The notes beneath the pieces were generated by a model that worked only from the letters and a program-made list of their open reading frames with translations, searched no databases and had not been told where the DNA came from. From Candidatus Levyibacteriota bacterium (GTDB taxonomy: Bacteria > Patescibacteriota > Microgenomatia > Levybacterales > UBA12049), in NCBI GenBank assembly GCA_027459725.1, contig DAIDHK010000001.1, forward strand, positions 67,411-131,410: a DNA stretch of 64,000 bases. The letters run 5' to 3'. This document shows, piece by piece, positions 23,556 through 60,797 of the stretch (the stretch's first letter is position 1; every line of letters starts with the position of its first letter). Both the position numbers and the translations under genes were made by a program.

Positions 23556-25994
23556 ATGAACCTGCCATTTTTTTCAAAGGCAAATAAAAAAACGGAAATA
23601 AGTTATTTTTTAGCCCTTACGTTACGAGATGAACAGATAGGAGCATATGTCCTCAAAGAAGAAGCAGGGAAATTGCACTTAGTAGGCAAGGGTGAAGAAA
23701 TCCTTGACAAATCTATTGAGCAATTAGACTTGAAAAATCAAATTGATATTTTAGACCGCATTATTAGTCAGGCAGAGAGTTCTTTACCCAAAAATGTTAT
23801 GACCCGCAAAACAATGTTTGGGGTCAAAGAAAGTTGGGTCGAAGATAACAAAATAAAAGCTGATTATCTGCATAAGCTCAAACAGATTTGCGATGAACTG
23901 GGCTTACAACCAACTGGGTTTTTAGTAATATCAGAAGCTATTGCGCATCGTTTGCAACAGGAGGAAGGAGCTCCTCTTACTGCCATCCTGGTGGAGATCG
24001 GAAAGAGTCAAATGACCGTTTCACATATTAAAGCAGGTAAGATCCTGGAAACCAAACATACCATAATCATTGAGTCTGCTATTCTGACACTAGATGCTTT
24101 GCTTAAACATTTCATTACCACTACAGTATTACCTACCAGAATCATTTTATTTGACGGTAATAACACTGCTAATTTAACCCAGGAATTTATAGCACATCAA
24201 TGGAGCAAGAGTCTGCCTTTTTTACACATGCCCCAGATTACACCTCTACCTCATGGTTTTGATGCACGCTCGGTTATTCTAGGAGCAGCTGAACAGATGG
24301 GGCTGCAGGTGTCCAGTGATATTAATATGGCTGGATTACCTGAGAAATCAGTTGAATCTAATCCTCCATTCATGGAGAATTTACAACCCGTCACCCCAAT
24401 AATGGACGCTACACCAAATAATCCAGAAGAGCAAGGTGAAGCTGAACCACCAGCTGAAGAATCAACAGAAACAATGGCTCGTGAGTTCGAGAAAAGGTTA
24501 AATGCCAGACTCAGTCCAGACGAGGAAAAAGACCTATCTTCAGTCGATGAAAGTAATGTAACTACTGCCGAAGAGTTTGGTTTTGTCAAAGGAGTCGATA
24601 TTTCAACTTTGCCGCATAAAGAACCACCCATCATGACAGAACATCATAGGCATGAAGAGAATGACATTATTTCGACAGAAGCCATTACAGATTATAGTAG
24701 TGACTACACAAACCATAACTTTAACCAACAGGAAGAACATATAAAACCAAAGCAAAAATTTTCATTGACCAATATGTCTTTCTTATCCGGCAGCATAAAT
24801 AAACTTTTACAGAAATTATTTATGAGTAGCTCTGACTCTCAATCTGATTCTAAAATCCCCCGCTGGATGATTATTGTACCCATTGTCTTACTATTAATAG
24901 TAGCTGGAATTGTATGGTATATTTTTAATGTTAAAGCAACTGTGAATCTTACCTTAAAACCAAAAATAGTTGAAGAACAGGGGAATATTACTTTTGCTCT
25001 CGGCTCTGGCAATGACTTTTCCAATAATACACTTGCGGCTTCGGATGTATCAGTTGACTTAAACGGCACTGCCAGTACGACTGCTACCGGCAGTAAAGCA
25101 GTAGGTTCCCCAGCCAAAGGTACTGTCACCATATATAACAACTCAAATAGTCCGGAGACATTAGCAGCAGGAACAACGATAACTTCCACGAATAATCTTG
25201 TCTTTACATTCGATAATAATGTGACTGTTGCTTCGGCCTCAGGAGATCAGTTTACGGGAACAAAACCAGGTACCGCCGATGTTAACGTAACTGCCAAAGA
25301 TATCGGCCAGCAGTACAATCTTCCTTCCGGCACCGTATTTTCTATTAATGCCGGTAATTCAGTAGCTGCCAAGAATAATAGTGCATTCAGTGGAGGAAGC
25401 AAACAGACAGTCACTGTAGTATCCCAGGCTGATATCAATAAACTGCTTAGCTCTTTACCTCAAAGTCTGCAGAACAAGGCTAAAAGCCAGCTACAAAGTC
25501 AGATATCCAGTGGACAGACACTTCTGCCTGGTATAACCAGTGATAATTTTAAATCCAAATCTTTTAATCACAATATAGGTGACCAGGCCAATTCAGTTAC
25601 GCTAACTGGTACAGTTACTTTCCATGGAGCAGCATATAATAATCAGGATTTACAGAATCTGGCAAAAACCATGTTAAAAGATAAATTTACAGGTAACTCT
25701 TCTTTGTCAGATAAAGGAATTAGTGCTAATATCAGTAACTTGCAACCTTCATCTGACGGCAAAACTATTGGAGCCACAATCGACTTGCAAGCCGGGCTTC
25801 TACCAAACATTGATACATCAAGTCTAATCTCTCAGGTGAGGGGTAAGACTGCCGCTCAGGCTACTCAGGTGTTAGACGGTATACCTCAGATTGAATCAAG
25901 TTCTATCAATCTAAGTCCTAATATACCTCTGATCCCGAAAATTTTACCGCGTTTTTCCAACCACATCACAATCAAGATCAACAGTAATGGCTAA
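23556..25994 (+). CDS. bitopic membrane protein: N-terminal cytoplasmic FtsA/PilM-like actin-fold domain, acidic linker, single TM, large Ser/Thr/Asn-rich extracellular domain
   Basis: The N-terminal ~260 aa align by eye to FtsA ('ISYFLALTLRDEQIGAYVLKEEAGKLHLVGKGEE' vs 'VVGLEIGTAKVAALVGEV...'; 'LTAILVEIGKSQMTVSHIKAGKI' vs 'VCVVDIGGGTMDIAVYTGG'). TM 'WMIIVPIVLLLIVAGIVWYIF' near residue 430; the ~370 aa after it are low-complexity, beta-rich ectodomain. Confidence 0.5.
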   Translation: MNLPFFSKANKKTEISYFLALTLRDEQIGAYVLKEEAGKLHLVGKGEEILDKSIEQLDLKNQIDILDRIISQAESSLPKNVMTRKTMFGVKESWVEDNKIKADYLHKLKQICDELGLQPTGFLVISEAIAHRLQQEEGAPLTAILVEIGKSQMTVSHIKAGKILETKHTIIIESAILTLDALLKHFITTTVLPTRIILFDGNNTANLTQEFIAHQWSKSLPFLHMPQITPLPHGFDARSVILGAAEQMGLQVSSDINMAGLPEKSVESNPPFMENLQPVTPIMDATPNNPEEQGEAEPPAEESTETMAREFEKRLNARLSPDEEKDLSSVDESNVTTAEEFGFVKGVDISTLPHKEPPIMTEHHRHEENDIISTEAITDYSSDYTNHNFNQQEEHIKPKQKFSLTNMSFLSGSINKLLQKLFMSSSDSQSDSKIPRWMIIVPIVLLLIVAGIVWYIFNVKATVNLTLKPKIVEEQGNITFALGSGNDFSNNTLAASDVSVDLNGTASTTATGSKAVGSPAKGTVTIYNNSNSPETLAAGTTITSTNNLVFTFDNNVTVASASGDQFTGTKPGTADVNVTAKDIGQQYNLPSGTVFSINAGNSVAAKNNSAFSGGSKQTVTVVSQADINKLLSSLPQSLQNKAKSQLQSQISSGQTLLPGITSDNFKSKSFNHNIGDQANSVTLTGTVTFHGAAYNNQDLQNLAKTMLKDKFTGNSSLSDKGISANISNLQPSSDGKTIGATIDLQAGLLPNIDTSSLISQVRGKTAAQATQVLDGIPQIESSSINLSPNIPLIPKILPRFSNHITIKINSNG

Positions 25995-33718: not shown

Positions 33719-34426
33719 TTGGGTGTAAAATCATATAATATGATTGAGAAAGTTAAAACACTGTCAAATAGAATAACTCACAAAATCAGACGTATGCGTC
33801 TGCAAAAAATGCATATAGATTATATAGCTGGTCTATTAACAATCCCAGTTTTATTGACAGCTATTATGATCAATTTTGGTAATCTAAATAAAAACACCAA
33901 AACTACAACCACTACGGAAACTCCAAGTCCGCAAGTTATTATAGTCACGACAGCTCCTAATAATAACAACGCTGATGTCAGCCAAAATCAAACAGCTCTG
34001 CCAACACCCACGCCTGTCTGTCAAAAAAATATAGGTCCCATCAGTATTACCTCACCGACCGAAGGACAAACGGTCAGTGATAACCCTGTATGTATACAAA
34101 TCAATTATTCAGATAGTAATTACTGCTCTGTGGTATGGTCATACCGCATAAATGGAGGTTCATGGTCTGATTTTAATAATAACTCTCCCTGTCTGTATAA
34201 CCTATCTAACGGTAACATTCAATTCCAGTTGAGAGTTAATAGTACAGTATCAAGTGATAGTACAACTCTGACTAGAAATTTCGTTTATGACGGTGCTAAC
34301 AATCCCGTTATTACTCCAACACCAACTCCTTTACCGACGTCTACACCAACTCCTACAAACACACCAACACCGACTCCTTCACCAACTATAACAATTACAC
34401 CTACTGTCCCTGTTCCGACTAAGTAA
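33719..34426 (+). CDS. membrane-anchored surface protein with Cys-containing beta domain and Pro/Thr-rich C-terminus
   Basis: TM 'IAGLLTIPVLLTAIMINF'; four Cys; C-terminal '(TP)n' repeats 'TPTPTPLPTSTPTPTNTPTPTPSPT'. Confidence 0.45.
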   Translation: MGVKSYNMIEKVKTLSNRITHKIRRMRLQKMHIDYIAGLLTIPVLLTAIMINFGNLNKNTKTTTTTETPSPQVIIVTTAPNNNNADVSQNQTALPTPTPVCQKNIGPISITSPTEGQTVSDNPVCIQINYSDSNYCSVVWSYRINGGSWSDFNNNSPCLYNLSNGNIQFQLRVNSTVSSDSTTLTRNFVYDGANNPVITPTPTPLPTSTPTPTNTPTPTPSPTITITPTVPVPTK

Positions 34427-34487
34427 TTTATACCATACATCAATTACTCTCAGTTTCTTAAAACACATTAGTAAGATAATCTATAAT

Positions 34488-35132
34488 CTAATAATTATCC
34501 GGACATAAATCTCCCAATGGACACCCTGCACAAACATGTTTGCGTGCTGGACAGTAATCTCTTCCGAAATTAATCATCAAATGTGTAAAATCAATCCAGT
34601 CTTGGCGGGGAATAATTTTCATCAGATCCTGTTCTATTTTCTCAGGCGTTTTCTCTTTGGTTAAACCCAGGCGTTGTGTTAAACGCATGACATGGGTATC
34701 TACAGCAATACCTTCAGCTTTACCAAAGGCATTTCCCAACACCACATTAGCTGTCTTTCTCGCAACTCCGGGTAGACTATCCAAATCCTCCAACGTTTGC
34801 GGAACATTACCACTAAACTTTTCCACAATCATTTTACAAGCGGCCACAATATTTTTAGCTTTATTAAAATGAAAATTAATTTTTTTAATCTCTTTATCCA
34901 ACTGCTCCGGCTTTAAATTAGCAAAATCCTCAGCTTTTTTATACTTAGCAAACAAATCAGGTGTAACTGTATTTACAGTTTTATCCGTCGCCTGCGCTGA
35001 AAGAATCGTAGCGATTAATAACTGTAAAGGTGTCCGGTAATATAATGCTGTCTGAGGATGAGGATATACATTACGCAATCTCTTAATTATTTCTTTTGCT
35101 TTTTCTTCCCGTGTCATAAAACTAGATCTCAA
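34488..35132 (-). CDS. nth: endonuclease III (DNA glycosylase/AP lyase)
   Basis: HhH-GPD 'LPGVARKTANVVLGNAFG' and the [4Fe-4S] cluster loop 'CPARKHVCAGCPLGDLC'. Confidence 0.85.
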   Translation of the reverse strand: MRSSFMTREEKAKEIIKRLRNVYPHPQTALYYRTPLQLLIATILSAQATDKTVNTVTPDLFAKYKKAEDFANLKPEQLDKEIKKINFHFNKAKNIVAACKMIVEKFSGNVPQTLEDLDSLPGVARKTANVVLGNAFGKAEGIAVDTHVMRLTQRLGLTKEKTPEKIEQDLMKIIPRQDWIDFTHLMINFGRDYCPARKHVCAGCPLGDLCPDNY

Positions 35133-36855
35133 TTACAATTGGTAAAACTAACGGACGTCTACGGGTCAGACGAAATATAAGCTTAGCCGAAACGTCTGAA
35201 ACTAATTTTCTCATGTGTACCCAGCTGGTCACTTTTACTCTCTTACTGACCAGCACATTTCTTAACTCTCTATCCAATGATGATTTAATATCCTGCATGT
35301 CGCTTTGTAATAATCCTCTGGTAACCACTTCTGGTGGATTAACCAGTTGTCCTTCTTCAGCAGATACTTCTGCCATGACAATGACGATTCCTTCTTTAGC
35401 TAGCTGTTCACGATCCCGAAGTACAAAATTCTCTACCTCTTCCCCGGAATATTGATCGACATATACGTGCTCAATTTGAATTCGCTTACCCAGTTTCATA
35501 TTATCCTGATTAATAAGCACTTCCTGTCCGTCTTCAATCAATAGAATTTGTTTTCGCTGATAACCAAACTTTTCTGCCAGCCGTCTGTAGGCTACCATCT
35601 GTTTGTACGTTCCGCTAATAGGAATTAAAAACTTCGGTTTTGTAAGAGATAACAATAGCATCATATCACCTGAAGCCCCATGACCTGAAACATGAAACTT
35701 ATCGGAAATTTGGGTATATAAAACTTTGGCACCAGTTTTGGAGATTTCATCAACTAACTGGTCAACTAATACTTCATTTCCGGGAATTGGATCAGCAGAA
35801 AAAATTACTATATCATCCGGAGATAGCTTTACTTCTTTATGTTCACCATTGGCAATTCGACTCATACCTGAATTTTCCTGTCCCTGCGCACCGGCCACCA
35901 ACAGCAATAACTGTTTGTCGTTGTAATTCTTGATCTGATCAATTTCAATCTCGGTATTTTGAAGCATTTGCAAATAACCAAGACGTTGTCCAATGTCTTT
36001 ATTTTTGATTAAGGACCTACCAATAAAACAAACCTTGCGATTATATTTTTCTGCTGCTTTGATAGCTTGGTTCAAACGCGAAATATTGGAAGAATAAGTT
36101 GTGATAATACACTTTCCACGACAGTTAGCTACTTCGCGTTCAAAATCGGCCGAAATTGTTTCTTCTGAATGCGTAAATCCGGTCCGTTCAGCTCCCAGAC
36201 AATCTGATAATAAACATAAGATACCCTGATTAGCCGCATTGACGATACCGGCAAAATCAGTTTTTTTACCATCGGCTGGAGTAAAATCAAATTTATAATC
36301 TGCACCATGATAAAAATTACCCACTGGTGTTTTTATAAAAATATGAGAGCTATCAGGGATTGAATGGGTTATACGTATAAAAGAAACCGTGAAGGGACCT
36401 AAATTTATCTCACGGTTATCAAATGGCACCGTTTCCACTTTACCTGATATTTCAAATTCTTTTAATTTCTCATTGGCAAATGCTGCTGTCAATGGGCTTG
36501 CATACATCGGAAAATCATAACCGGCAGTCTGTAGCTGTGGTAAAACAAAAGGTAATGCCCCTATATGGTCTTCATGTCCATGTGAGAACACCATTCCCAT
36601 AATTTTTTTGTTTTTATTATTTTTGAGTAAATAACGGACATCGGGTAAAAGCAGATCGACACCCAACATGGTTTCATCGGCAAAACCCAGACCGCAATCA
36701 ACGATTAAAATCTGATCTTTATATTCATAGACGTACATATTACGTGTTACATCACCTGGTCCTCCCAACGGTAACAGAGATAATGTTTCGTTATTCTTTT
36801 TGAAAAACTTTTTCTGAGGTTGAAAAGGAGGCTTTGCATTTAAATTTTCTTCCAT
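35122..36855 (-). CDS. rnj: ribonuclease J (metallo-beta-lactamase/beta-CASP)
   Basis: 'VFSHGHEDHIGALPFV' HxHxDH motif; beta-CASP and C-terminal domains; 577 aa. Confidence 0.85.
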   Translation of the reverse strand: MEENLNAKPPFQPQKKFFKKNNETLSLLPLGGPGDVTRNMYVYEYKDQILIVDCGLGFADETMLGVDLLLPDVRYLLKNNKNKKIMGMVFSHGHEDHIGALPFVLPQLQTAGYDFPMYASPLTAAFANEKLKEFEISGKVETVPFDNREINLGPFTVSFIRITHSIPDSSHIFIKTPVGNFYHGADYKFDFTPADGKKTDFAGIVNAANQGILCLLSDCLGAERTGFTHSEETISADFEREVANCRGKCIITTYSSNISRLNQAIKAAEKYNRKVCFIGRSLIKNKDIGQRLGYLQMLQNTEIEIDQIKNYNDKQLLLLVAGAQGQENSGMSRIANGEHKEVKLSPDDIVIFSADPIPGNEVLVDQLVDEISKTGAKVLYTQISDKFHVSGHGASGDMMLLLSLTKPKFLIPISGTYKQMVAYRRLAEKFGYQRKQILLIEDGQEVLINQDNMKLGKRIQIEHVYVDQYSGEEVENFVLRDREQLAKEGIVIVMAEVSAEEGQLVNPPEVVTRGLLQSDMQDIKSSLDRELRNVLVSKRVKVTSWVHMRKLVSDVSAKLIFRLTRRRPLVLPIVIEI

Positions 36856-36904
36856 AATTTATCCAATTTCTAATCTATATTATACTCTTATATAGCTGCA
36901 TATT

Positions 36905-38167
36905 CTACCAGGAGGGTAAAAATTCTTTGATATTGCTGTCATTTACGACTACAGTTTGTACTTTTCCTTCAACAATCAATCTGGCCGATTTACGACACAT
37001 ATTGTCTATGGTCCTTTCTAGAGTACGAATACCTGAATCAAAACCCAAAGGGCGGATAACACCTGCCCAGGAATTATCGTCAATCGTCATTTGCTGTGGC
37101 AATAAACCGGCCTGTTGACGAATTTTTGGGAATAGGTAAGTCTTAGCAATCACTATCTTTTCTTCATCCGAGTAAGAGGGCATTTGAATAATTTCCAAAC
37201 GGTCCATCACCGCAGTTGAAATAGCCGTCGTATTGTTGGCTGTAGCCACAAAGAGAACATGTGATAAATCAAAGGGATAATCAATATAATGATCAATAAA
37301 AGCTGCATTCTGTTCCGGATCTAACAGCTCAACTAAAACTCCCATGATATCGGCACGGGAAGCTTCAGTCACACGATCCAGCTCATCTAGTAAAATAACT
37401 GGATTTTTAGTCTTGGCATGAACTAATTTCTTGATCACCGAGCCCGGTTCTGCATCAGGAAAAGCACGCGACTGGCCTCTGAGGGCTAGAGAATCAGCCA
37501 TACCTCCAAATGGTATGCGTTCAAACTGCTTGCCTAAAGCTTCAGAGATAGATTTTGCCAAAGTTGTCTTACCCGTACCGGCTAATCCTACTAAACATAA
37601 GATTGGTGCGTGCTGTATATTGTTAACTCCACCATTTTTTAAATTCAAAATAATAGTAGCCAGATAATCCAAAATTCTACTTTTAATTGGCTCAAGTCCA
37701 TAGTGATTTTTATCCAGAATTTCTTTTGCATTGACTAGATCCAGTGAATCTTTAGAAAGGGTGTTCCAGGGCAAACCAATCACCCAATTAATATAATTGG
37801 ATGTACTTTCATATTCTAAAATGTAATTTGCACTCATAAAACCAGCACTGGCTCTGATTAATGCCAAGCGTGCAATTCGCTCGACCAGTGACTGATGTAA
37901 ATCTGCAGGTAGCTTTATTGACTCAATTTTTTCTCCTAATTTCCTTATTTGATCATTTGAACTCGCTTTGGCTTTATCCTCTTCTGTCTCTTTTACGACA
38001 GTCTGACGATTATCAGGAGCAATAATCTGCGGTCCTGATGGAACGTATGTCGTCTGATCCATAGGCAAATCTTGATTAACTGGCTGAGATTGTACTGATG
38101 GTGCATTTAAACCGCTAGTCGGCGTACTTGAAGATGTAACATTTTCCGTTTGGGCAGTGGAATTCAT
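36905..38167 (-). CDS. Lon-like AAA+ ATPase module without LonN or S16 protease domains
   Basis: 'LDKNHYGLEPIKSRILDYLA...ILCLVGLAGTGKTTLAKSISEALGKQFERIPFGGMADSLALRGQSRAFPDAEPG...PVILLDELDRV...LDPEQNAAFIDHYIDYPFDLSHVLFVATANN' is collinear with Lon AAA+ ('DHYGLEKVKERILEYLAV...LCLVGPPGVGKTSLGKSIA...'). The ORF stops where the protease domain would begin, and RNase J starts 49 nt later. Confidence 0.75.
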   Translation of the reverse strand: MNSTAQTENVTSSSTPTSGLNAPSVQSQPVNQDLPMDQTTYVPSGPQIIAPDNRQTVVKETEEDKAKASSNDQIRKLGEKIESIKLPADLHQSLVERIARLALIRASAGFMSANYILEYESTSNYINWVIGLPWNTLSKDSLDLVNAKEILDKNHYGLEPIKSRILDYLATIILNLKNGGVNNIQHAPILCLVGLAGTGKTTLAKSISEALGKQFERIPFGGMADSLALRGQSRAFPDAEPGSVIKKLVHAKTKNPVILLDELDRVTEASRADIMGVLVELLDPEQNAAFIDHYIDYPFDLSHVLFVATANNTTAISTAVMDRLEIIQMPSYSDEEKIVIAKTYLFPKIRQQAGLLPQQMTIDDNSWAGVIRPLGFDSGIRTLERTIDNMCRKSARLIVEGKVQTVVVNDSNIKEFLPSW

Positions 38168-38292
38168 AACATAATGATAATATAGTCAGCTTGAAAACAC
38201 AAACAATATAATTAAAAACTATCGGAAAGAACAATTTAACCAGTAAACAATGGATAGATGTTAATTCTTTCTAGTTATTATCAGCTAGAAGA

Positions 38293-40566
38293 TTAGAAGT
38301 GTTTTTTGCGACGCATGCCTTTACCAAATTTTTCGTTACGGTTAAATCCACCACGTTCTCTCCTGAATTGTTGAGACAACGGGTGATCACTGTGTCTTTC
38401 TTCTCTATCATTTCTTTCGCTGTTTCTTTTTTGCTCCTGCTCCCTGGCTTCATCAGCTGACAGCATAGAAAGATTAATTCTGCCCTGATCGTCAATTTGT
38501 ATTACTCTTACCTTCACTACCTGGCCAATCTGCACCACATCTTCAGGTGATTTGACGAAATCTTTAGACATCTGGGAGACATGTACCATGCCTTCCTTAC
38601 CTGGCAAAATTTCTACAAAAGCTCCGAAAGACAAAATTCTTTTAACCGGACCTTCAAATTCTTCGCCAACTTGTACTTCTCGTACGATACCTTTGACCCA
38701 ATCATAGGCTTTTTGTACTGACTCATCACTCGTACCCGAAACCGTTACTTTACCGTCATCCTCAACATCAACGCTCGCGCCAGTTTGGGCGATTATGTGT
38801 TTTATGGTTTTCCCCCCAGGTCCAATAATCTCACCGATGCGATCAACAGGAATTTGCAAAACTTCAATCTTTGGTGCATAGGCTGATAATTGAGAGCGTG
38901 AAGATGGAATTACAGTCTGCATGACTTCCAGAATTTGCATTCTTGCATTGCGAGCCCGTTCAAAAATTTCGGCAATTTGTTCAACGGTTAACCCCAATAT
39001 TTTTACATCCAATTGTATAGCAGTTACACCTGTATCTGTCCCTGCCACTTTAAAGTCCATATCACCGGAAAAATCTTCCAGTCCAATGATATCAGTCAAT
39101 AAAACATATTTTTCTTCATTGGACATCATACCAATAGAAATTCCCGCCACTGGTTTGATGATAGGTACACCTGCATCCATTAAAGCCAAAGTAGAACCAC
39201 AAGCTGAGGCCATAGAAGTAGAGCCATTGGAGGACATTATCTCTGATACTACACGAATAGTGTAAGGGAAAACATCACGACTTGGTATAACCGCTTCTAA
39301 AGCTCTTTCTGCAAGTGCACCATGCCCGATCTCACGGCGTGAAGGAGTTCCCATTCTCCCAGCCTCACCTACGGAATAAGGTGGCATAGAGTAATGATGA
39401 ATATATCTTTTACTTTCCTCACCCTCAGCCGATTCGATCAACTGTTCCATACGAGGAGAACCAAGAGTTACTACAGTTAAGGCTTGAGTCATTCCACGCT
39501 GGAAAATAGCTGATCCATGAGTTCTGGGCAACAATCCAACTTCTACATGCAATGGACGAATCTCGTCCATTTTGCGACCATCAGCTCTTTTATTATTTTT
39601 CATCACATCACTGCGGATTTGCTTAAACATGACATATTCCATTGCCTTAGCAATGGTTTTTTTGTCTACTTCACTAGCACCATCACGCATTTTTTCTGTA
39701 TCATAAATCCTATTAAGCAGGACATCTGTTTCATCTCCACTGCCTTCTTTACTGACACGGGAAACTATTAAATCTTTGATATCAGACAGATATTCCTTTT
39801 CAATCAAAGTTGCTACTTCATGCAATTTTGTATTTGGCTCAACGACTTTTTTCTCCTGACCTGCTTTAGCCCGGAACTCCTCGATAAACTTGATAATCTC
39901 CCCAGTAGCATTATGTGCTTCTTTAGCTGCTTCAACTAATACATTTTCCGGTACTTGCTTAGCACCAGCTTCAATCATGTGAGTTTTTTCTTTGGTCTGA
40001 CTGAAGACAATATCCAACTCTGAATGTTCTGTTTCTGAGGTGGTGGGGTTAACAATAAGTTCACTGCCATCATCCGGACTTTGAACATAACCTACGCGTA
40101 CCGCCCCGATTGGTCCTTTCCAGGGAACACGTGACATATGCAGTGCAGCAGAAACAGCAATGATAGATAAAATATCGGGTTCATGTTCTCCATCCACCGA
40201 CAAAACCGTAACAACTACTTGGACTTCATTTTTGTACTCTTTAGGAAACAATGGGCGTATAGAGCGATCAATCAGACGACCAATCAAAATTGACTCATCG
40301 GTCGGACGACCTTCGCGTTTTACCCATCGGGAGCCTTTGATTCTTCCTCCGGCATATAAGCGTTCGACATATTCTACAGTAAGTGGGAAATAATCGATAT
40401 CTTCACGCAGCTTTCCTTCGACAACTGTAGCGTGGACCATAGTATCACCCATGCGGGCCAATACGGCGGCAGTAGCCTGTTCAGCTAACCGACCTGTTTC
40501 CAGTGTTACTTTCTCTCCTGCAACTTCGAATTCTAAGGAGACGATTTTATTTGTTTTTTTTGCCAT
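38293..40566 (-). CDS. pnp: polynucleotide phosphorylase
   Basis: Two RNase PH domains plus KH plus S1 ('GKIVRIVDFGAFV'-like 'GPVKRILSFGAFVEI'), with an Arg/Gly-rich C-terminal tail. Confidence 0.95.
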   Translation of the reverse strand: MAKKTNKIVSLEFEVAGEKVTLETGRLAEQATAAVLARMGDTMVHATVVEGKLREDIDYFPLTVEYVERLYAGGRIKGSRWVKREGRPTDESILIGRLIDRSIRPLFPKEYKNEVQVVVTVLSVDGEHEPDILSIIAVSAALHMSRVPWKGPIGAVRVGYVQSPDDGSELIVNPTTSETEHSELDIVFSQTKEKTHMIEAGAKQVPENVLVEAAKEAHNATGEIIKFIEEFRAKAGQEKKVVEPNTKLHEVATLIEKEYLSDIKDLIVSRVSKEGSGDETDVLLNRIYDTEKMRDGASEVDKKTIAKAMEYVMFKQIRSDVMKNNKRADGRKMDEIRPLHVEVGLLPRTHGSAIFQRGMTQALTVVTLGSPRMEQLIESAEGEESKRYIHHYSMPPYSVGEAGRMGTPSRREIGHGALAERALEAVIPSRDVFPYTIRVVSEIMSSNGSTSMASACGSTLALMDAGVPIIKPVAGISIGMMSNEEKYVLLTDIIGLEDFSGDMDFKVAGTDTGVTAIQLDVKILGLTVEQIAEIFERARNARMQILEVMQTVIPSSRSQLSAYAPKIEVLQIPVDRIGEIIGPGGKTIKHIIAQTGASVDVEDDGKVTVSGTSDESVQKAYDWVKGIVREVQVGEEFEGPVKRILSFGAFVEILPGKEGMVHVSQMSKDFVKSPEDVVQIGQVVKVRVIQIDDQGRINLSMLSADEAREQEQKRNSERNDREERHSDHPLSQQFRRERGGFNRNEKFGKGMRRKKHF

Positions 40567-40733
40567 AAATTTAATCTTTTTTAGTATAACACAGTAATTG
40601 TGTAAAGAAGAATAATAATTATTTTTCTTAACAACTCAACTATGTGGTCCGTAAGAAATATTTGTTATATCAAGTAGTACGTAGCAAGTATGAAGAGGAA
40701 ATCACTTCATATTCATTACATAATACTTGATAC

Positions 40734-41003
40734 TTAGTTCTTCAGACCAATTTTTTTCAATATATCACCTGATCTGCTTTTATCAACTTTCTCCAAAAAG
40801 TTAATAAGTCTGCGTCTTTTAGCAATCATTGATAATAATCCACGGCGGCTGTGAACATCATGAGCATGTGCTTTTAAATGCTCTGCTAAACGATCAATAC
40901 GGTGACTGAGAAGAGCAATTTGTACTTCAGGACTACCAGTATCACTGTTACCTGTCTGATATTGCTTGATAATTTCCTGCTTTTGTGTCGTACTTAACGG
41001 CAT
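40734..41003 (-). CDS. rpsO: 30S ribosomal protein S15
   Basis: 'MPLSTTQKQEIIKQYQTGNSDTGSPEVQIALLSHRIDRLAEHLKAHAHDVHSRRGLLSMIAKRRRL'; 89 aa from the ATG at 41003. Confidence 0.9.
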   Translation of the reverse strand: MPLSTTQKQEIIKQYQTGNSDTGSPEVQIALLSHRIDRLAEHLKAHAHDVHSRRGLLSMIAKRRRLINFLEKVDKSRSGDILKKIGLKN

Positions 41004-41093
41004 AGTAAAAGGTATTATACCAGTTTTGTCCGCCCTTCGCAACCAAACCAATAGCAATTATTTCTTTAACGGAGTTAAAACAATAAATATGCG

Positions 41094-42167
41094 TTAAACG
41101 TTAGTTGATCCCTTGTAGACTTTAGGAGTTAACCAGTCTGCCGGAGGATTTGACTCCTCCATGTCTTTATGATCCTGCTGCTGATTTTTTTTCTGGTTGG
41201 ATTGCTCCTGCTGCAGTTGCTGACGGATAACCTGTTGTCTGCGCTGCAATTGCTGCTGCTGATTATTCTGAGCTGGTCTGCGTTCCTGAACTGGAGCTTC
41301 CAAGATATCCTGGGTATTTTGCTCATTAGCTGGTTTCTGGTTAAAATTACGTTGTTGCTGCATTTGACGGTTAGTGTTTTGATTTACTGGATTTTGACGA
41401 CGCTGGTTATTATTTGGTCGGGTTTGCATTTGTTCCATTGGTCTTTTTGCACCTTTGCGTAGTAATATAGCAGCAATTTCAAAAGCTAAATAACTTGTAC
41501 CTTCCTGCTGGAAGTTATTGGTAGCAGCATGAATACCATATAATAGGTTTTGTGCTGTATCAATATCAAAATCATATCCTAAAGATAACAATAAATCAGC
41601 TACCTGCTCACTAACAGAGGAAAATCGGGGAGAAACTAAGACTACATTTCCATAGTTTTCATTTTCTTCTTTGTTATCTATATTTATTACAGTAACGTTC
41701 TTCAGACTTTCCGGATTGACCAGTTGTCCCAAATCTGACAAACGGGGAGTACCTACAGTAACAAATAATCCATTTAGCGACCCTCCATGGTTATAGCGGA
41801 CATCATCTTCGGTAAATGAAAAACCCTGTTCACCTGGCTTGACAATAATATTCAAAAATCCATTGTCAAGAGTATATGAGACTTTTTCAATTTCTCCTTC
41901 GTCCTTGTACGGGAAAGATACTATTAAATCTCCACCATTTCCCTGAATAGCAGTTTTAACTTTATCAATTCCCACCAGAGATGAATGCTCAACTAAAGGA
42001 GTTTCAGGTGCAATGATATTAACTTTTTTATTAGCTTGAGTAAAGGTAAGATAAATAGAGAGAGCTGCAGCCAACTCATCCAGACTAGGCTGTTGTCTAA
42101 CTGCAATAGTGACCTGATCATGCTGATCAATAATGTCTTTAATTTGCTGTAAAGCTTGACTATCCAT
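41094..42167 (-). CDS. DHH-family-like protein (NrnA position) with degenerate catalytic motifs and a Gln/Asn-rich C-terminal tail
   Basis: The N-terminus is collinear with NrnA ('DQHDQVTIAVRQQPSLDELAAALSI' vs '[22 protein letters not shown]'), but DHH is replaced by 'NIDNKEEN' and the Asp ligands are lost. The C-terminal ~110 aa are Q/N/R low complexity. Confidence 0.45.
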   Translation of the reverse strand: MDSQALQQIKDIIDQHDQVTIAVRQQPSLDELAAALSIYLTFTQANKKVNIIAPETPLVEHSSLVGIDKVKTAIQGNGGDLIVSFPYKDEGEIEKVSYTLDNGFLNIIVKPGEQGFSFTEDDVRYNHGGSLNGLFVTVGTPRLSDLGQLVNPESLKNVTVINIDNKEENENYGNVVLVSPRFSSVSEQVADLLLSLGYDFDIDTAQNLLYGIHAATNNFQQEGTSYLAFEIAAILLRKGAKRPMEQMQTRPNNNQRRQNPVNQNTNRQMQQQRNFNQKPANEQNTQDILEAPVQERRPAQNNQQQQLQRRQQVIRQQLQQEQSNQKKNQQQDHKDMEESNPPADWLTPKVYKGSTNV

Positions 42168-46986: not shown

Positions 46987-49392
46987 TCACTTTGTTAAAA
47001 CAATCTGTCCACTGGCATCGACATTTAAAACGATCTTATCTCCCCTTTTAATCTGATCCTGAAGTTTTGCTTTTGCCAATAAGTCTTCTATATTATCCTG
47101 AATATACCTTCTCATCGGACGAGCTCCAAATTCAACGTCAGCACCTTCTTTAACAATTTTATCTATAACAACCTCGCTAAATGATAGACCAATATCCTGC
47201 TGTGCCATTTGACCAATAATGTCATTTAAAATTAACTGCACAATTTGCTTTAATTCCACAGGACCAAGTGGAGTAAAGGTAATAACATCATCAAAACGGT
47301 TTAGTAGTTCAGGACGGAAAATCTGATTTTGCTGCAGATATTCTAACAGCTTTTGCTGAAACACTTTATCTATTTTCTGTCCTGACACAACATTTTCACG
47401 AACAAATTCTGCTCCTGCATTTGAGGTGGCAATAATAATACTGTTCACAAAAGTAACCGTATGGCCTTTATTATCTGTCAAACGTCCATCTTCTAATACC
47501 TGCAAAAACAAATCAAGAATTTTAGGATGAGCTTTCTCAAATTCATCCAGCAAAACTAAAGAAAACGGATGATCATGAATTTTATCAGTCAGTTCGCCTC
47601 TTTCATTCCCCTCTCCGGGGGCTGAACCAAGTAGTCTTCTCTCTCCATCAATATCGGAGTACTCAGACATGTCCAGACGAATCATATTCTGTTCGCCGCC
47701 AAAATATACCGAAGCTAAGGCTTTAGCTGTTTCTGATTTGCCGACTCCAGTTGGCCCTAAGAAAAGGAAAGAAATGGGTCTATTCTGTGTAGTTAGGCCT
47801 GAGCGTAAACGCCTAAGTGCCTCAGCAATGGCCGAGATAGCCTGCGTCTGATCAATAACCTTTTCATGAATTTTATCTTCCAAATGCAATAATAATTCTT
47901 TTTCCTCTTTGGTAGGAGCACCTACATTAACCTGAGTTTTTAAACTGATTTGTGCCTCGATGTCACTGGCTAATACTACTTTTTGTCTTGACTTACCCAG
48001 ATAATGAGATTGTGAAGAAATTGCCACACTATTAGCCGCATCGTTGAGTAAGTTAACAGCACTACCTGGCAGCACCGCATCCTGCTCGTAACGGTCAGCC
48101 AGGTTAATAGCAGTCAGTACTGCATGATAAGTCATTATCACACCATTTTTATTTTCTATATCATCTGTTTTGGCAATTAGCATTTGCGTCGCAATATCTT
48201 TACTGGGTTCAAGAATATTGATTAAGGTAAACACTTCATGGAGTGGATTCTGCTGCATGTAAGTTTTGTAATTACCGGGTGACATACTGGCAATTACCGG
48301 CAGAAAGCCAGACTGTAAATAGGGCAACAGAGCGCCGGACAAATCTATAGCATAAGAACTTGCTCCCATCAAATTTTCAAAATCAGGAATATACAAAATT
48401 ACATTTCTGGCATGTGAGACTTCGGCTACGATCGATTCTAAACGAAGCTCTAAGTCACTACGGTCTTGCGCTCCGGCAATAAGCGGACCCACCATAAGCT
48501 GTAAAATCTTCTTATGATTAAGAAAGCCTGAAAGATGAGAGTAATAACTATCATTGGCCAACTCAGCCACCAGATTTTCTTTCCCTACACCATCTTCGCC
48601 CACCAGTAACACATTATTGTTTTCCCTTTTGCTCAGTGCTTCTAAAAGCGCTCTATATTGATCTTCTCTTCCTATTAAAAACGGTTCTATATCACGATAA
48701 CTAAAGTCCTGTGTATAATTTTTAGTCTCCGGGGTCCAACCATTTACAATCCCTTCGCCTATTCCTTCACCGGTAAAATTCATTCTAATTGGTCTGGGGA
48801 ACTCTTCGTTTTTAAATTTATAACGAGCCCATAATAATATTTGAAGTAGTTCCTCCTGTTTAATTTCATGATTGAAAAGTGTTTTGGTCTGATCTTCGCT
48901 CAAGAGCAAATAAGCAACCAGAGCGTCCATAGTAGTAATATAACTTCCGCCTATTTTCTCTACAATTTCTGCCGCTTTAGCAATAATTTGATCTGTGGGG
49001 ATATCTAGAACTTTAATATCCTCAACTGGTATCGCTGATTTTTCTAATACAAAAGACACGGTGGGAGTTTTTAATAATTTGTAAATAAATTTTTGCAATG
49101 TAATTGCAGAAAACAAAATTTGTAATAAATCTTTACTGCTAGACAGTGTCCATTTACCTTTATCATTTCTATTTACAGGTAGATAAGGATGAGATAAGTA
49201 GACATGAAAACGAAAAAATATTTCACAGATCAGAAACCATACAAAAACAAATAACGGCAAGCTAACTGGAAGTTTATGATTTAACTGGTTGAGAAAAAGT
49301 AAAATCACAAATACAAAGACTAATGTTCTGACAGACCGCAATAGCGCAGATGTATATATAATCTTTAATTTAACTAAACCTTCAATATTCAT
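46987..49392 (-). CDS. membrane-anchored Clp/Hsp100-family AAA+ ATPase with degenerate D1 and intact D2; no ClpP-docking loop
   Basis: Two N-terminal TM helices ('TLVFVFVILLFLNQL', 'LPLFVFVWFLICEIFF'), then a Clp_N-like repeat. D1 Walker A 'GEDGVGKEN' (canonical GEPGVGKT) and Walker B 'ILYIPDFEN' (canonical ILFIDELH) have lost catalytic residues. D2 is intact: 'FLGPTGVGKSETAKALA', '[29 protein letters not shown]', 'ATSN', 'GARPMRR'. No [ILV]G[FL] loop and no M-domain. Confidence 0.8.
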   Translation of the reverse strand: MNIEGLVKLKIIYTSALLRSVRTLVFVFVILLFLNQLNHKLPVSLPLFVFVWFLICEIFFRFHVYLSHPYLPVNRNDKGKWTLSSSKDLLQILFSAITLQKFIYKLLKTPTVSFVLEKSAIPVEDIKVLDIPTDQIIAKAAEIVEKIGGSYITTMDALVAYLLLSEDQTKTLFNHEIKQEELLQILLWARYKFKNEEFPRPIRMNFTGEGIGEGIVNGWTPETKNYTQDFSYRDIEPFLIGREDQYRALLEALSKRENNNVLLVGEDGVGKENLVAELANDSYYSHLSGFLNHKKILQLMVGPLIAGAQDRSDLELRLESIVAEVSHARNVILYIPDFENLMGASSYAIDLSGALLPYLQSGFLPVIASMSPGNYKTYMQQNPLHEVFTLINILEPSKDIATQMLIAKTDDIENKNGVIMTYHAVLTAINLADRYEQDAVLPGSAVNLLNDAANSVAISSQSHYLGKSRQKVVLASDIEAQISLKTQVNVGAPTKEEKELLLHLEDKIHEKVIDQTQAISAIAEALRRLRSGLTTQNRPISFLFLGPTGVGKSETAKALASVYFGGEQNMIRLDMSEYSDIDGERRLLGSAPGEGNERGELTDKIHDHPFSLVLLDEFEKAHPKILDLFLQVLEDGRLTDNKGHTVTFVNSIIIATSNAGAEFVRENVVSGQKIDKVFQQKLLEYLQQNQIFRPELLNRFDDVITFTPLGPVELKQIVQLILNDIIGQMAQQDIGLSFSEVVIDKIVKEGADVEFGARPMRRYIQDNIEDLLAKAKLQDQIKRGDKIVLNVDASGQIVLTK

Positions 49393-49781: not shown

Positions 49782-51863
49782 CTACTGACATGCAAAAGTA
49801 CACAACTGCAATCCCCCTGCTCCATGTGAACATTTACTGACGACCTTACATCCCGGCAAAGCCATGTTTGCCTGATTTAATAAACCAGACGGGACCTTCC
49901 ACTCAATCAAATAGTTGCCAGTTTGTGAGATAGTTGTTGAATAAGGTCCAATGGTTATGCCATCGGGTAATTGAGCTGTCAGCTGCAATTGTCCAAAACT
50001 AAAATCAGAAAAATCAACCGCTCCAGTGAGACTCGTAACACCTGTAAACTGCTGACCGCCAGAACTTAAAGTCAAGTTTACATTCGATATACCCTCATTA
50101 CCATCATAATATCCGTTGCCATTAAGATCGTTATAGACGATAACATGTAAAGATAAATCCGCTGAGGGAGTACCTGTAAGACTAACTGTACCATTTGGAC
50201 TCACAGTTGGAGATGGTGAGACTCCTTTTGTCGACAGAGGCTGACTGCTGCATGCAGGAGCAACTTCAGTTCTATTTAAACATACAGCTCCCTGCTGTGT
50301 ATTAACCGGTTGCTGATCCATCTCAGTAGCCTGTAAAGCTTTTTCAACATTAACACAAGTATTAGAGTACCCTCCATATAAATCATTACAGGCTAACAGC
50401 ATGTCAATATACATATCGGAAAAATTTGCTGAAGGAATTAAATAATGAGTTAGCGCCCGATATTGAATCTGATAACTGGCACTGCCTATACCATCAATCT
50501 GACAGCCGTTAAAACTTCCTCCCTCAGTCATCAAATAAAAAGCTTTATTCATCACACCCTCGTTGGAATGAACTCCTCCACTGTCTTGAGTATCACAGAT
50601 ATACAACGGAGAAAAAAGTTTATCCGGCTGACCAGTAAGTGTAGGATCATTCAGATATCTAAAAGGTGTTTTAACTCCCGCAATATGAACATCCGCTCCT
50701 ATTGACCAGTTATGATCAATGCCGGTAGCAAAAATATCTGAATTGCTTTCATTTAATGCTCCTGACTGATAGCTATAAATTAATCCTGCAGTGTAATGAG
50801 TTACCGCATGCGTTAATTCATGTGTGACGATGTCCAAAACATCCATACCGGCACATAATTCAATCCCACCGTCTACATAAGCTGAATTAGGACAGGGGAA
50901 TCCCGCAATATCAGCTCTGTTCACATAACCAAAAAGGGTTGCACCTTTATTATCTATACTGTCGCGGTTAAAATTGTTTAGATAAAACTGGTATACCTGC
51001 CCGAAAATATCATAAAGTTTATTGACGTCAGTGTTCATGGAGGGGGGCTGACCCTCTGTACGACTCACTACGCAATTATCAGAGTTGTTACAGTTGCTGA
51101 TGTTGCGGGCTAAAAGTGTTTCTACCTGATTTTCCTGGTAAACAATTTTTCCACTGGTTAAGTCAATAAAATAACGTGTAGCAAAATCCGGTGGTTTGTT
51201 CGATGTAGTTATTAAAACAGCTAAAACATGATAGGTAGTGCCATTATTGCTCAGGCCTAAAGCCTGCAGATTTAATAAGTACTCATTATCATTAGCAACC
51301 TTTAAATTTAAATGAGGATTATCCTTTCTTGCCTGGTTTAAGGCAATCATTTCAGCTTTCTCCCGGTTGATTTGGGTACTCAAAGTAGCAGGTTGCTTAG
51401 TAACCACTACCCCCGAAGCAGCATATATCTCGTCCACATGCTGAATGTGAACCGCGATAATCCCATCATAAACAGGTATATTATCTATGGTTTGCTGATA
51501 AAAATAATGTTCGGTGCCTGGTAGATAGTAGGTAGGACTTTGCTGGTCAACCAAGCTTCTCTGTAAAACAACCTTGGAATAACTATTTAAACCATTCCCA
51601 AAAATCCCGTTAGGATTTGCGCTAATAAAATCTAATGCTGCTGCCTCCCCCTGCTGATTTGATTTATATAAATAACCATTTTCAGTGTACAAGGAAAAAG
51701 CATTATCATTGCTATGTGTAACAGTATAAGAATCTTTGCCTAATATCTGAGGACTGATCCTAATCTGACTGACAAAATATGTTATTAAAGTAACTAATAT
51801 AAGTAATACGAAAGCTTCGACTAACCAGTATCTTCTCAAATACTTTAAAACCTTTTCTCTCAT
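49782..51863 (-). CDS. secreted M4 (thermolysin-like) zinc metalloprotease with N-terminal signal anchor/propeptide and C-terminal beta-rich extension
   Basis: '[33 protein letters not shown]' = HEXXH plus the downstream Glu ligand. '[17 protein letters not shown]' and '[16 protein letters not shown]' are collinear with thermolysin ('[34 protein letters not shown]...GGVHINSGIINKAAYLI'). Confidence 0.85.
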   Translation of the reverse strand: [693 protein letters not shown]

Positions 51864-59213: not shown

Positions 59214-60797
59214 ATGCCGGTTGAACAATTGTCAAAACGTATCCTAACAAGTATTATGAATTTCACTGAAGGTACCGGTGGGGAAGGGCGCTTGCCAGTT
59301 CTCGAAATTGTACCTGAGGGTAATTTTGCCAGAACAGATAATGGAAATAATATCTTCCGTGAGGGTGCTAACTTATTTGGAATATTTACTAATAAATTTG
59401 CCCGCTCAACTCTTACTTTAAATCCAGCTCCGCATGTTCCAGGTAAGATACCAGCCGAAGTTGTAAGAAATGCTGCCCTCAGAAGATTTGGTTTTATACC
59501 TAATCTGGGAAATCTAAACGAAATTGGAACTCATTTAGTAGTCTGGTGGCAAAAACTTGATACACCGCCTGAAACTCCTATAGAAGAACAAACAGGTTCT
59601 CGTTGTGATATGCTCGGCCTTGCGCAACTGCCTGAAACAGATCGCAAGAATTATTTTTCAGCTATTAGTCAACAAATTGAAAATGGTGTTAATTTAATGG
59701 CTGAATGTTTAGGTTTATCTGAGGACGGACTTAGAAATTTAAGAGTTTATGGTTTATTTGGACATGCCACTTGGGAAGAGCGTAATAAATTTGGCCTAAG
59801 TAGAGGCTCACAAAGCGCACCTGACGGACATTTAAATATTGTCTACTTACCTGAAGATGTTAGTAAAAAGACGAATCCGGAAGCAGTTACGGCTAAAGAA
59901 ATGGTTAAACAGATTGGTCCATGGGATACAGTGGTTGATAACCTATTTGGCAGTGGAATACAAAGAATGATTCAGAATACTGCACTATCACGACTGAATC
60001 CGCGGGATGTAAAGGAAAATAATCCGATTTATGTCACCAGATTGTCAGATTATACCACCAGCAGTGACTTCTCTCATATGAATTTCTTTGAAGGCTATAA
60101 GTTGAATTTTGGCCAATCCATAAGCATAGAACGATCACTTGCAGTACTTACTGACATCCTTAAAAAAGGCTCAGACCTCTATTCAGCTGCTTTGTCCAAC
60201 TATGAGGCTTACTTTAAAAACAGTCATAATCCTGACAGGAAAAAAGCCATATTTGATAATTTAAAAACAAGTGCTAAATTATTTGGTTTTGGTGATCGTA
60301 TGGCAGGTGAATTTGCTAATTTCGTTTTCTCCATAAAACCGACCCATGGTCAGCTAAATAAATGGATTAATGAAATTGAAGCTGATATACACAGCCACAA
60401 TGCCGGTACTGATAACTCTGAAATATCTGCCGACAATTTAGCTTATTTAAAAAAAGTCAAACGCGTATATCAAAGAATCGCTGTAAAATTACACGCGACA
60501 GGCGGACGGGAAAGCTTGAGAAAACATCTTCAGCATGTTAACAATTTATCCCCTCTGGATGCTGATCTACTTCTATCAGTGATTGAAGACAGATTCAAAC
60601 TAATGGATGAAAAAGTGACAAACATTTCCTCTATTATGTCCCCCTTCCTCTCAGGCAGCTATATGCTTGATTACACAAGGGATAATCAGGGACATATTAT
60701 GGTTAAGGGCATATCCTTGAGCACACGTCTTGGCACTGACAAAGGAGTAGTAGAAGATTTAGGAGGATATGTTATTCATCGAGCCACGGGTATATAA
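59214..60797 (+). CDS. hypothetical cytoplasmic protein (527 aa), no recognised domain
   Basis: Long uninterrupted ORF with no TM or signal peptide and a mixed alpha/beta character. No motif I can assign from memory. Preceded by a 560-bp AT-rich intergenic region. Confidence 0.5.
   Translation: MPVEQLSKRILTSIMNFTEGTGGEGRLPVLEIVPEGNFARTDNGNNIFREGANLFGIFTNKFARSTLTLNPAPHVPGKIPAEVVRNAALRRFGFIPNLGNLNEIGTHLVVWWQKLDTPPETPIEEQTGSRCDMLGLAQLPETDRKNYFSAISQQIENGVNLMAECLGLSEDGLRNLRVYGLFGHATWEERNKFGLSRGSQSAPDGHLNIVYLPEDVSKKTNPEAVTAKEMVKQIGPWDTVVDNLFGSGIQRMIQNTALSRLNPRDVKENNPIYVTRLSDYTTSSDFSHMNFFEGYKLNFGQSISIERSLAVLTDILKKGSDLYSAALSNYEAYFKNSHNPDRKKAIFDNLKTSAKLFGFGDRMAGEFANFVFSIKPTHGQLNKWINEIEADIHSHNAGTDNSEISADNLAYLKKVKRVYQRIAVKLHATGGRESLRKHLQHVNNLSPLDADLLLSVIEDRFKLMDEKVTNISSIMSPFLSGSYMLDYTRDNQGHIMVKGISLSTRLGTDKGVVEDLGGYVIHRATGI

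Follow-up and report, generated by a model that had tools for sequence, protein, structure and literature searches.

A protease-less, LonA-derived AAA+ ATPase maintained across bacteria of the candidate phyla radiation

Lon is defined by the association of a motor and a peptidase on one polypeptide, and a physiological role for the motor in its own right ("Lon as chaperone") has been under debate from the 1990s onward on the basis of engineered active-site mutants. A locus of a Candidatus Levyibacteriota bacterium (contig DAIDHK010000001.1) raises the question of what a Lon motor is doing when no peptidase accompanies it. The window analyzed here, a 64-kb stretch of that contig, carries an open reading frame (ORF), hereafter Lon-AAA, which a preliminary description had read as a Lon homologue stripped to its AAA+ module, being either a truncated relic or a stand-alone Lon-type ATPase that might partner with another protease. 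The evidence supports Lon-AAA as a functional and ancient Lon-derived ATPase found throughout the candidate phyla radiation (CPR), with no peptidase encoded in cis or nearby.

That the protein is a Lon homologue without LonN and S16 domains was borne out by Pfam, by a partial match to TIGR00763 and by alignment to PDB entries, which agree with one another. Pfam placed AAA at residues 190-328 and Lon_lid at residues 352-403, and no match to Lon_C (PF05362) or LON_substr_bdg (PF02190) was obtained at E<=0.01. The equivalog TIGR00763 (endopeptidase La) was matched at model positions 248-571 of 795 only, with 333.4 bits against a cut-off of 608, and NF008053 gave 267 bits against a cut-off of 891. 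The strong matches of the PDB sequence search were all Lon (E ~1e-74 to 1e-76; Y. pestis Lon, E=3e-76), and residues 71-417 correspond to E. coli Lon 248-579 at ~40% identity, with the ORF stopping 3 residues past the position aligned to 579. The C-terminus thus falls at the AAA+/protease junction of canonical Lon, and RNase J does start exactly 49 nt later, both as first described. The motifs quoted in support of the original alignment (HYGLE, GLAGTGKTTLAKSIS, ILLDELDRV, LDPEQN and ATAN) were all found in the ORF, and M111, Y125 and W128 of the three-helix bundle match Y. pestis M284, Y294 and W297. In place of LonN, the protein begins with a 60-residue head in which S/T/Q account for 23 of 60 residues and S/T/Q/P/N for 35 of 60. 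The sequence features given in the preliminary description are accurate throughout and lie well outside what chance would produce.

An AlphaFold2 monomer model, generated from a 45-sequence family alignment, reached a mean pLDDT (predicted local distance difference test) of 85, exceeding 90 over most of residues 70-420, while residues 1-56 were predicted to be disordered (pLDDT <50). The model comprises helices at residues 62-83, 88-108 and 113-131, followed by an alpha/beta AAA+ core and a helical lid up to residue 416. When it was compared with the PDB using Foldseek, the top 50 matches were all LonA or LONP1 chains with probability 1.00, and the target TM-score against the E. coli Lon AAA+ fragment 6n2i was 0.89. 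This fragment (residues 235-584, 6N2I) is known to fold and to pack in the crystal as an open helical hexameric spiral (PMC6722904), and its boundaries are nearly equal to those of the folded part of Lon-AAA. The two differ in origin, 6N2I being a laboratory truncation of a protease and Lon-AAA a natural gene selected across the CPR, and Lon-AAA additionally shows distinctive signatures in its pore loop and lid, besides a disordered head.

To place the protein among its relatives, database matches were compared by length and domain content. The best 120 matches were all 347-457 aa long and contained AAA and Lon_lid only; their identity to the query was 61-84%, apart from one match at 100% that is the same protein, and the named sources among them were mostly Patescibacteria or Levybacteria. 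In a two-tier comparison based on an exhaustive search of 50%-identity representatives, short proteins ending 0-8 residues past the lid scored 290-480 bits, whereas canonical Lons of ~780-830 aa scored at most 266 bits. The short architecture is represented by 318 unique sequences with a median length of 374 aa, the pairwise identity of the module having a median of 51% and a minimum of 33%. A neighbor-joining tree of the module, calculated without bootstrap, grouped the short proteins in a single clade separate from canonical LonA, with scores of 330-480 bits for the clade; a few "short" sequences that fell within the canonical group have long N-termini and resemble contig-edge fragments. A profile built from the most divergent short members recovered further members in Nomurabacteria, WWE3, Saccharimonadales, Dojkabacteria and Woykebacteria, and a scan of GTDB species genomes yielded 80 loci with titles naming Levy-, Gottesman-, Woese-, Roizman-, Chisholm-, Davies- and Woykebacteria, Dojkabacteria and Saccharibacteria, the closest being a Levyibacteriota metagenome-assembled genome (89% identical). 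Parcubacteria and Saccharimonadia are also among the lineages with this architecture, so that the truncated form, when checked in relatives, is conserved across CPR lineages. No fused (Rosetta-stone) domain was detected by Pfam in the long family members, whose extensions are domain-free, and no curated NCBIfam or Pfam model specific to the family was matched.

Some names attached to these sequences call for caution. Many GTDB species-representative contigs that are CPR by gene content and synteny are titled "uncultured Gammaproteobacteria bacterium" or "Pseudomonadales" (L012, L013, L015, L016 and others), and P0118, a member of the family, bears the name Methylomirabilota; the taxon labels of such assemblies are unreliable.

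The functional residues of Lon were transferred to the query from the Y. pestis Lon assignments of Shin et al. 2020 (PMC7239648), whose reference residues include E447, Y456, E458, N473 and R484, and were counted in the 318 family sequences. The residues K200, D261, E262, N311, R323 and R381, which mark a catalytically competent AAA+ ATPase of the HCLR clade, are each 100% conserved, and ATP hydrolysis within a ring is strongly indicated by the full conservation of these six catalytic positions. The pre-sensor-1 hairpin residues that brace the pore loop are largely retained, Y294 being Tyr in 93% and Phe in 7% of sequences and D296 being found in 99%; largely retained, too, are Y125 (96%) and W128 (77%) of the N-terminal domain three-helix bundle (NTD3H). 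Several signatures set the clade apart, namely the change of GPPG to GLAG in Walker A, the replacement of YTxEAG by P[LF]G[FY]D[SA]G before sensor-2, and two insertions of ~7-8 residues. Pore loop 1 has changed from the canonical TY[IV]G to x-[F/Y]-P-[D/E], and the position of R395, the first of two pore-loop arginines, is Ser in 87% of the family. A tripeptide LGF or LGY is conserved in the lid loop, LGF occupying residues 374-376 in the window protein.

Purifying selection on the gene is strong. The ratio of nonsynonymous to synonymous substitution rates (dN/dS, Nei-Gojobori) was 0.063-0.068 for pairs with unsaturated dS of 0.64 and 1.08, and ~0.03 for more distant pairs, and no neutral evolution was seen. 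Between the window and its nearest relative (L024), residues 70-420 are 96% identical with synonymous sites saturated (pS = 0.76), and in the same pair of genomes PNPase is 94% and RNase J 84% identical; the Lon-AAA module is thus as constrained as PNPase and more constrained than RNase J. The head (residues 1-69 in this comparison) is 57% identical with omega ~0.28, and it reads as a coding but loosely constrained segment. Among the loci whose 3' end is complete, all 90 place the stop codon between -3 and +12 residues from the C-terminus of the query.

The search for a protease domain gave negative results at every level covered. S16 probes were taken from the C-terminal domains of six canonical Lons, which cross-match each other and an E. 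coli sequence at E<=1e-60. With a first set, which included the last ~30 residues of the lid, matches were confined to those residues; with lid-free probes, tblastn detected no S16 domain in any frame of the 64-kb window or of 91 related loci (1.55 Mb). No Lon_C was found in the ten largest other ORFs of the window, and no protease gene recurred near Lon-AAA across nine annotated neighborhoods. The complete RNase J gene 49 nt past the stop, together with the empty probe search in all window frames, rules out a frameshift or a hidden S16 domain downstream. Of the two roles proposed in the preliminary description, that of a stand-alone Lon-type ATPase agrees with the conserved truncated architecture, the purifying selection and the intact catalytic residues, and partnering with another protease found no support in the window or in the homologous loci.

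We lean, by a narrow balance of probability, toward reading Lon-AAA as a stand-alone, protease-free unfoldase or remodeler derived from LonA. A LonA descendant would have lost its N-terminal substrate-binding and S16 peptidase domains early in the CPR/Patescibacteria and would have remained under strong purifying selection since then. ATP would be bound and hydrolyzed in a ring by means of Walker A and B, sensor-1, an arginine finger acting in trans and sensor-2, with hydrolysis coupled to the central channel through NTD3H, the pre-sensor-1 hairpin and pore loop 1. Once assembled, the ring would pull on or remodel protein substrates at the expense of ATP, and, as there is no degradation chamber, these substrates would be released unfolded or disassembled instead of degraded, as by a natural "chaperone-only Lon". 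The remodeled pore loop 1 and the variable, disordered head suggest that substrate grip and recruitment may be unlike those of canonical Lon. The analysis shows the architecture and its conservation, the selection acting on it, the intact catalytic residues, the fold, and the lack of an S16 domain in cis or in the neighborhood; that the protein forms a ring, threads or remodels substrates and has no protease partner at all is what we infer. A precedent is provided by proteolytically inactive Pim1, which, as outlined in a review, rescues the loss of m-AAA and thereby points to a proteolysis-independent activity of Lon (Rep et al. 1996, as reviewed in PMC7072132).

Several points weigh against this proposal. 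The pore-loop-1 aromatic is a hallmark of polypeptide threading, and at the Y398 position it is present in only 58% of the family (F 45%, Y 13%; F236 in the window protein), with Pro in 74% at the I399 position and Asp/Glu in 93% at the G400 position. Processive translocation is therefore not assured, and threading by an aromatic paddle, plausible for the window protein judging from its residues, is not a conserved property of the family. The hexamer of canonical Lon owes part of its stability to the N-terminal domains and the protease ring, and ring formation without them is presumed. The S16 search spans the window and the 91 loci, so a peptidase partner may be encoded elsewhere in the genome. 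Moreover, the same review (PMC7072132) notes that doubt has been cast on reading the inactive-Pim1 result as a "chaperone" effect.

The alternative that survives best, which we consider unlikely, assigns Lon-AAA to RNA decay, as the ATP-dependent part of a degradosome-like assembly of the CPR working with PNPase and RNase J, where it might recycle or remodel these enzymes, or free RNA of bound ribosomal or RNA-binding proteins. It draws on the genomic context. The three genes lie on the same strand as pnp-lonAAA-rnj, separated by short gaps that measure 125 and 49 nt in the window. When loci flanked by 4 kb or more are counted, RNase J is found on the same strand within 3.5 kb downstream in 58 of 72, being adjacent in 38, and a same-strand PNPase gene is present upstream in 56 of 70. 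The linkage to rnj persists in the deepest-branching and most divergent clade (L011), which keeps lonAAA-rnj-ftsK without pnp upstream, and also where other genes intervene; in several loci the RNase J match even overlaps the end of the Lon-AAA match. The conserved acidic residue of pore loop 1 would also fit substrates that are basic, RNA-binding proteins for instance. Against this, the gene belongs to a long housekeeping block, nusA-infB-(DHH-like)-rpsO-pnp-[lonAAA]-(nudix/udg)-rnj-ftsK, encoded on one strand in Microgenomates, Parcubacteria, Saccharimonadia and WWE3, and the adjacency to pnp and rnj may therefore be inherited and not functional. The order pnp...rnj-ftsK also occurs in Firmicutes and Actinobacteria, where it is not known to include a Lon-AAA gene, which counts in the same direction, as does the position of the gene elsewhere in ~20% of loci (Roizmanbacteria, some Dojkabacteria and Saccharibacteria) and the frequent intervention of UDG or NUDIX genes. 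The protein itself is acidic (predicted isoelectric point, 5.4), and Pfam matched no RNA-binding domain in it or in the long family members, which argues against direct handling of RNA. A consensus scan of positions 34300-41300 for promoters and terminators gave the same counts as shuffled sequence and therefore says nothing about operon structure.

We assign a distinctly low probability to a bolder reading: a protease-free motor would replace Lon across the CPR, its acidic, Pro-containing loop would grip basic RNA-binding or ribosomal proteins, and it would work with the flanking PNPase and RNase J as the part that supplies ATP-dependent remodeling in a minimal machine for both RNA decay and ribosome turnover. 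If true, this would be the first AAA+ protein of Lon ancestry recruited to RNA metabolism, and a natural proof of an essential, proteolysis-independent function of the Lon ATPase.

It is rather doubtful that Lon-AAA is one half of a split Lon, whose ATPase ring would dock in trans on a separately encoded peptidase (S16 or another chambered protease) and still degrade its substrates. The principle is workable, as the two-component AAA+ proteases ClpXP and HslUV demonstrate, the channel-coupling elements are retained, and the LGF/LGY tripeptide of the lid loop superficially resembles the ClpP-docking motifs IGF/LGF. Nevertheless, the empty S16 search of the window and the 91 loci and the nine neighborhoods without a recurrent protease offer no candidate partner, the protein ends 0-12 residues past the lid with no docking extension, and no split LonA was found in the open-access literature. 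The candidacy of LGF as a ClpP-docking loop was considered unlikely, as the tripeptide sits in the nucleotide-site loop directly before the sensor-2 arginine R381 and not in a protruding docking loop.

Two further alternatives retain almost no probability: a decaying relic or pseudogene of full-length lon, with the ORF kept by chance, has nothing in its favor beyond the domain loss itself and is refuted by the dN/dS of 0.03-0.07, the stop fixed in 90 of 90 loci with no S16 remnant downstream, the CPR-wide truncated architecture and the complete conservation of the catalytic residues, and an assembly or frameshift artifact that removed a real protease domain is equally remote given the intact RNase J gene just downstream and the recurrence of the architecture in hundreds of independent assemblies. 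Membership in a defense system was rejected as well; PADLOC models gave generic AAA matches only (<=29 bits), and the genomic context is a housekeeping one.

As a protease-free motor, Lon-AAA can be set against several known systems. Its three-helix bundle, large AAA+ subdomain and Lon-type lid are homologous to those of LonA (MEROPS S16; E. coli and Y. pestis Lon, human LONP1), and it keeps Walker A and B, sensor-1, the Arg finger, sensor-2, the pre-sensor-1 pair of Tyr and acidic residue, and the LDPEQN block. It lacks the S16 Ser-Lys peptidase domain, the N-terminal LON/PUA-like domain and the long coiled coil, and differs in its remodeled pore loop 1, the substitution of R395 by Ser, the GLAG Walker A, the pre-sensor-2 loop and the two short insertions. 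With ClpB/Hsp104, and with ClpX acting alone in MuA remodeling, it may share the principle of an AAA+ ring that remodels without degrading; this activity is proposed from analogy, and, unlike those proteins, Lon-AAA has a single Lon-type AAA+ module, no M-domain and no zinc-binding N-domain. Among Lon variants in which one module is disabled, the reverse case is LonC (Lon-like-Ms), described as having kept the protease with a degenerate ATPase (PMC3391209), whereas Lon-AAA has kept the ATPase with the protease deleted; both show that the Lon family tolerates the loss of one activity. In the open-access literature, the only kind that was searchable, we found no description of a protease-less LonA and no work on CPR Lon, FtsH or ClpP that bears on it.

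Lon-AAA is neither a new fold nor a new principle; what surprises is how cleanly the two activities of Lon have been separated in nature. A bacterial superphylum with minimal genomes keeps the motor only, under selection as strong as that acting on PNPase, and this provides a natural system in which to ask what the Lon ATPase does without proteolysis, how a ring coheres without the protease ring, and how the remodeled pore loop grips its substrates. There is also a consequence for annotation. Family members carry pipeline labels such as "ATP-dependent Lon protease" or "AAA family ATPase", and inventories of CPR proteostasis that rely on these labels may list for these organisms a Lon protease for which this gene does not code. 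Lon-AAA falls short on three features that define the Lon protease family, having neither an S16 nor a LonN domain and an equivalog score below the cut-off, and should therefore be kept out of that category. The coordinates of the gene, its parts and its two neighbors are collected in Table 1.

Table 1. Lon-AAA, its functional elements and the flanking nuclease genes, in window coordinates
Feature	Position	Strand	Basis or remark
Lon-AAA ORF (420-aa protease-less LonA-type AAA+ ATPase)	36905..38167	-	ATG start; TAG stop at 36905-36907
N-terminal head, residues 1-60	37988..38167	-	S/T/Q/P/N-rich, predicted intrinsically disordered; fast-evolving, variable length across family
Three-helix bundle, residues 61-131 (= LonA NTD3H / C-terminal part of HI(CC))	37775..37987	-	Model helices; aligns to Lon 248-310
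Large alpha/beta AAA+ subdomain, residues 144-330	37178..37738	-	Pfam AAA; model and fold search
Walker A GLAGTGKTT, residues 194-202	37562..37588	-	K200 and T201 100% in 318 sequences
Pore loop 1 RGQSRAFPDAEPG, residues 230-242	37442..37480	-	F236 = Y398, P237 = I399, D238 = G400
Walker B VILLDE, residues 257-262	37382..37399	-	D261 and E262 100% in 318 sequences
LDPEQN block, pre-sensor-1 beta-hairpin (Y294, D296) and sensor-1 N311, residues 282-312	37232..37324	-	Conservation and alignment
Arginine finger R323 (= R484)	37199..37201	-	100% in 318 sequences
Lon-type lid (small alpha subdomain), residues 331-420	36908..37177	-	Pfam Lon_lid; aligns up to E. coli Lon 579
Clade-specific loop PLGFDSGIR, residues 373-381, ending in sensor-2 R381	37025..37051	-	Replaces canonical YTxEAGVR
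RNase J (577 aa), downstream of Lon-AAA	35122..36855	-	Complete; starts 49 nt past Lon-AAA stop
PNPase (757 aa), upstream of Lon-AAA	38293..40566	-	125 nt before Lon-AAA start

The housekeeping block shows local variation in the window. Between infB and rpsO, a gene (41094-42167, minus strand) encodes a protein of 357 aa whose N-terminal region is weakly DHH-like and whose tail is long and rich in Q/N; in other CPR loci this slot is occupied by shorter DHH-like proteins (e.g. L007:4476-5135). The otherwise conserved rnj-ftsK adjacency is interrupted by an endonuclease III-like gene (34488-35132) and by a 235-aa ORF on the opposite strand, between ftsK and nth (33719-34426, plus strand), which has a hydrophobic segment and a C-terminal tail rich in (Thr-Pro)n.

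Directly upstream of Lon-AAA in Saccharimonadia and WWE3 is a gene for a Zn-ribbon and transmembrane protein of ~300-320 aa (L008:6955-7917, L009:4173-5111, L076, L082). Two of these proteins were compared and are mutually homologous (28% identity, E=3e-27). The corresponding slot of the deepest Lon-AAA clade holds a 682-aa protein with a Zn-ribbon and DUF3352 (L011:933-2981), and the Zn-ribbon/transmembrane protein is absent from the lineage of the window. The ~315-aa ORF in this position in WWE3 and Saccharimonadia had been considered as a cryptic protease and was rejected, as it is the Zn-ribbon and transmembrane protein, gives no protease signal and occurs in 5 of 69 loci.

Elsewhere in the window, the gene at 49782-51863 (minus strand) encodes a thermolysin-like metallopeptidase of the M4 family (693 aa), which carries an SdrD B-like domain and an FTP propeptide motif; the enzyme looks secreted, and the organism that encodes it is thought to depend on other cells. 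At 46987-49392 (minus strand) lies a gene for an 801-aa ClpB/ClpC-like protein, which has a strong second AAA module (AAA_2, ClpB_D2-small) and weak matches in the first, so that D1 may be degenerate; this gene is also found at the edge of homologous loci. Two large ORFs, at 23556-25994 (plus strand, 812 aa) and 59214-60797 (plus strand, 527 aa), had no Pfam match at E<=1e-5.

Finally, the comparison of Lon representatives brought to light an apparently unremarked architecture, that of tandem-motor Lon proteases. About 25 representatives of 900-1700 aa (e.g. P0121, P0123, P0125-P0130, P0132-P0141) contain two or three tandem Lon AAA+/Lon_lid modules followed by one Lon_C, and the tandem modules were confirmed by Pfam in P0121 (Candidatus Dependentiae, 3 modules) and P0128 (2 modules).

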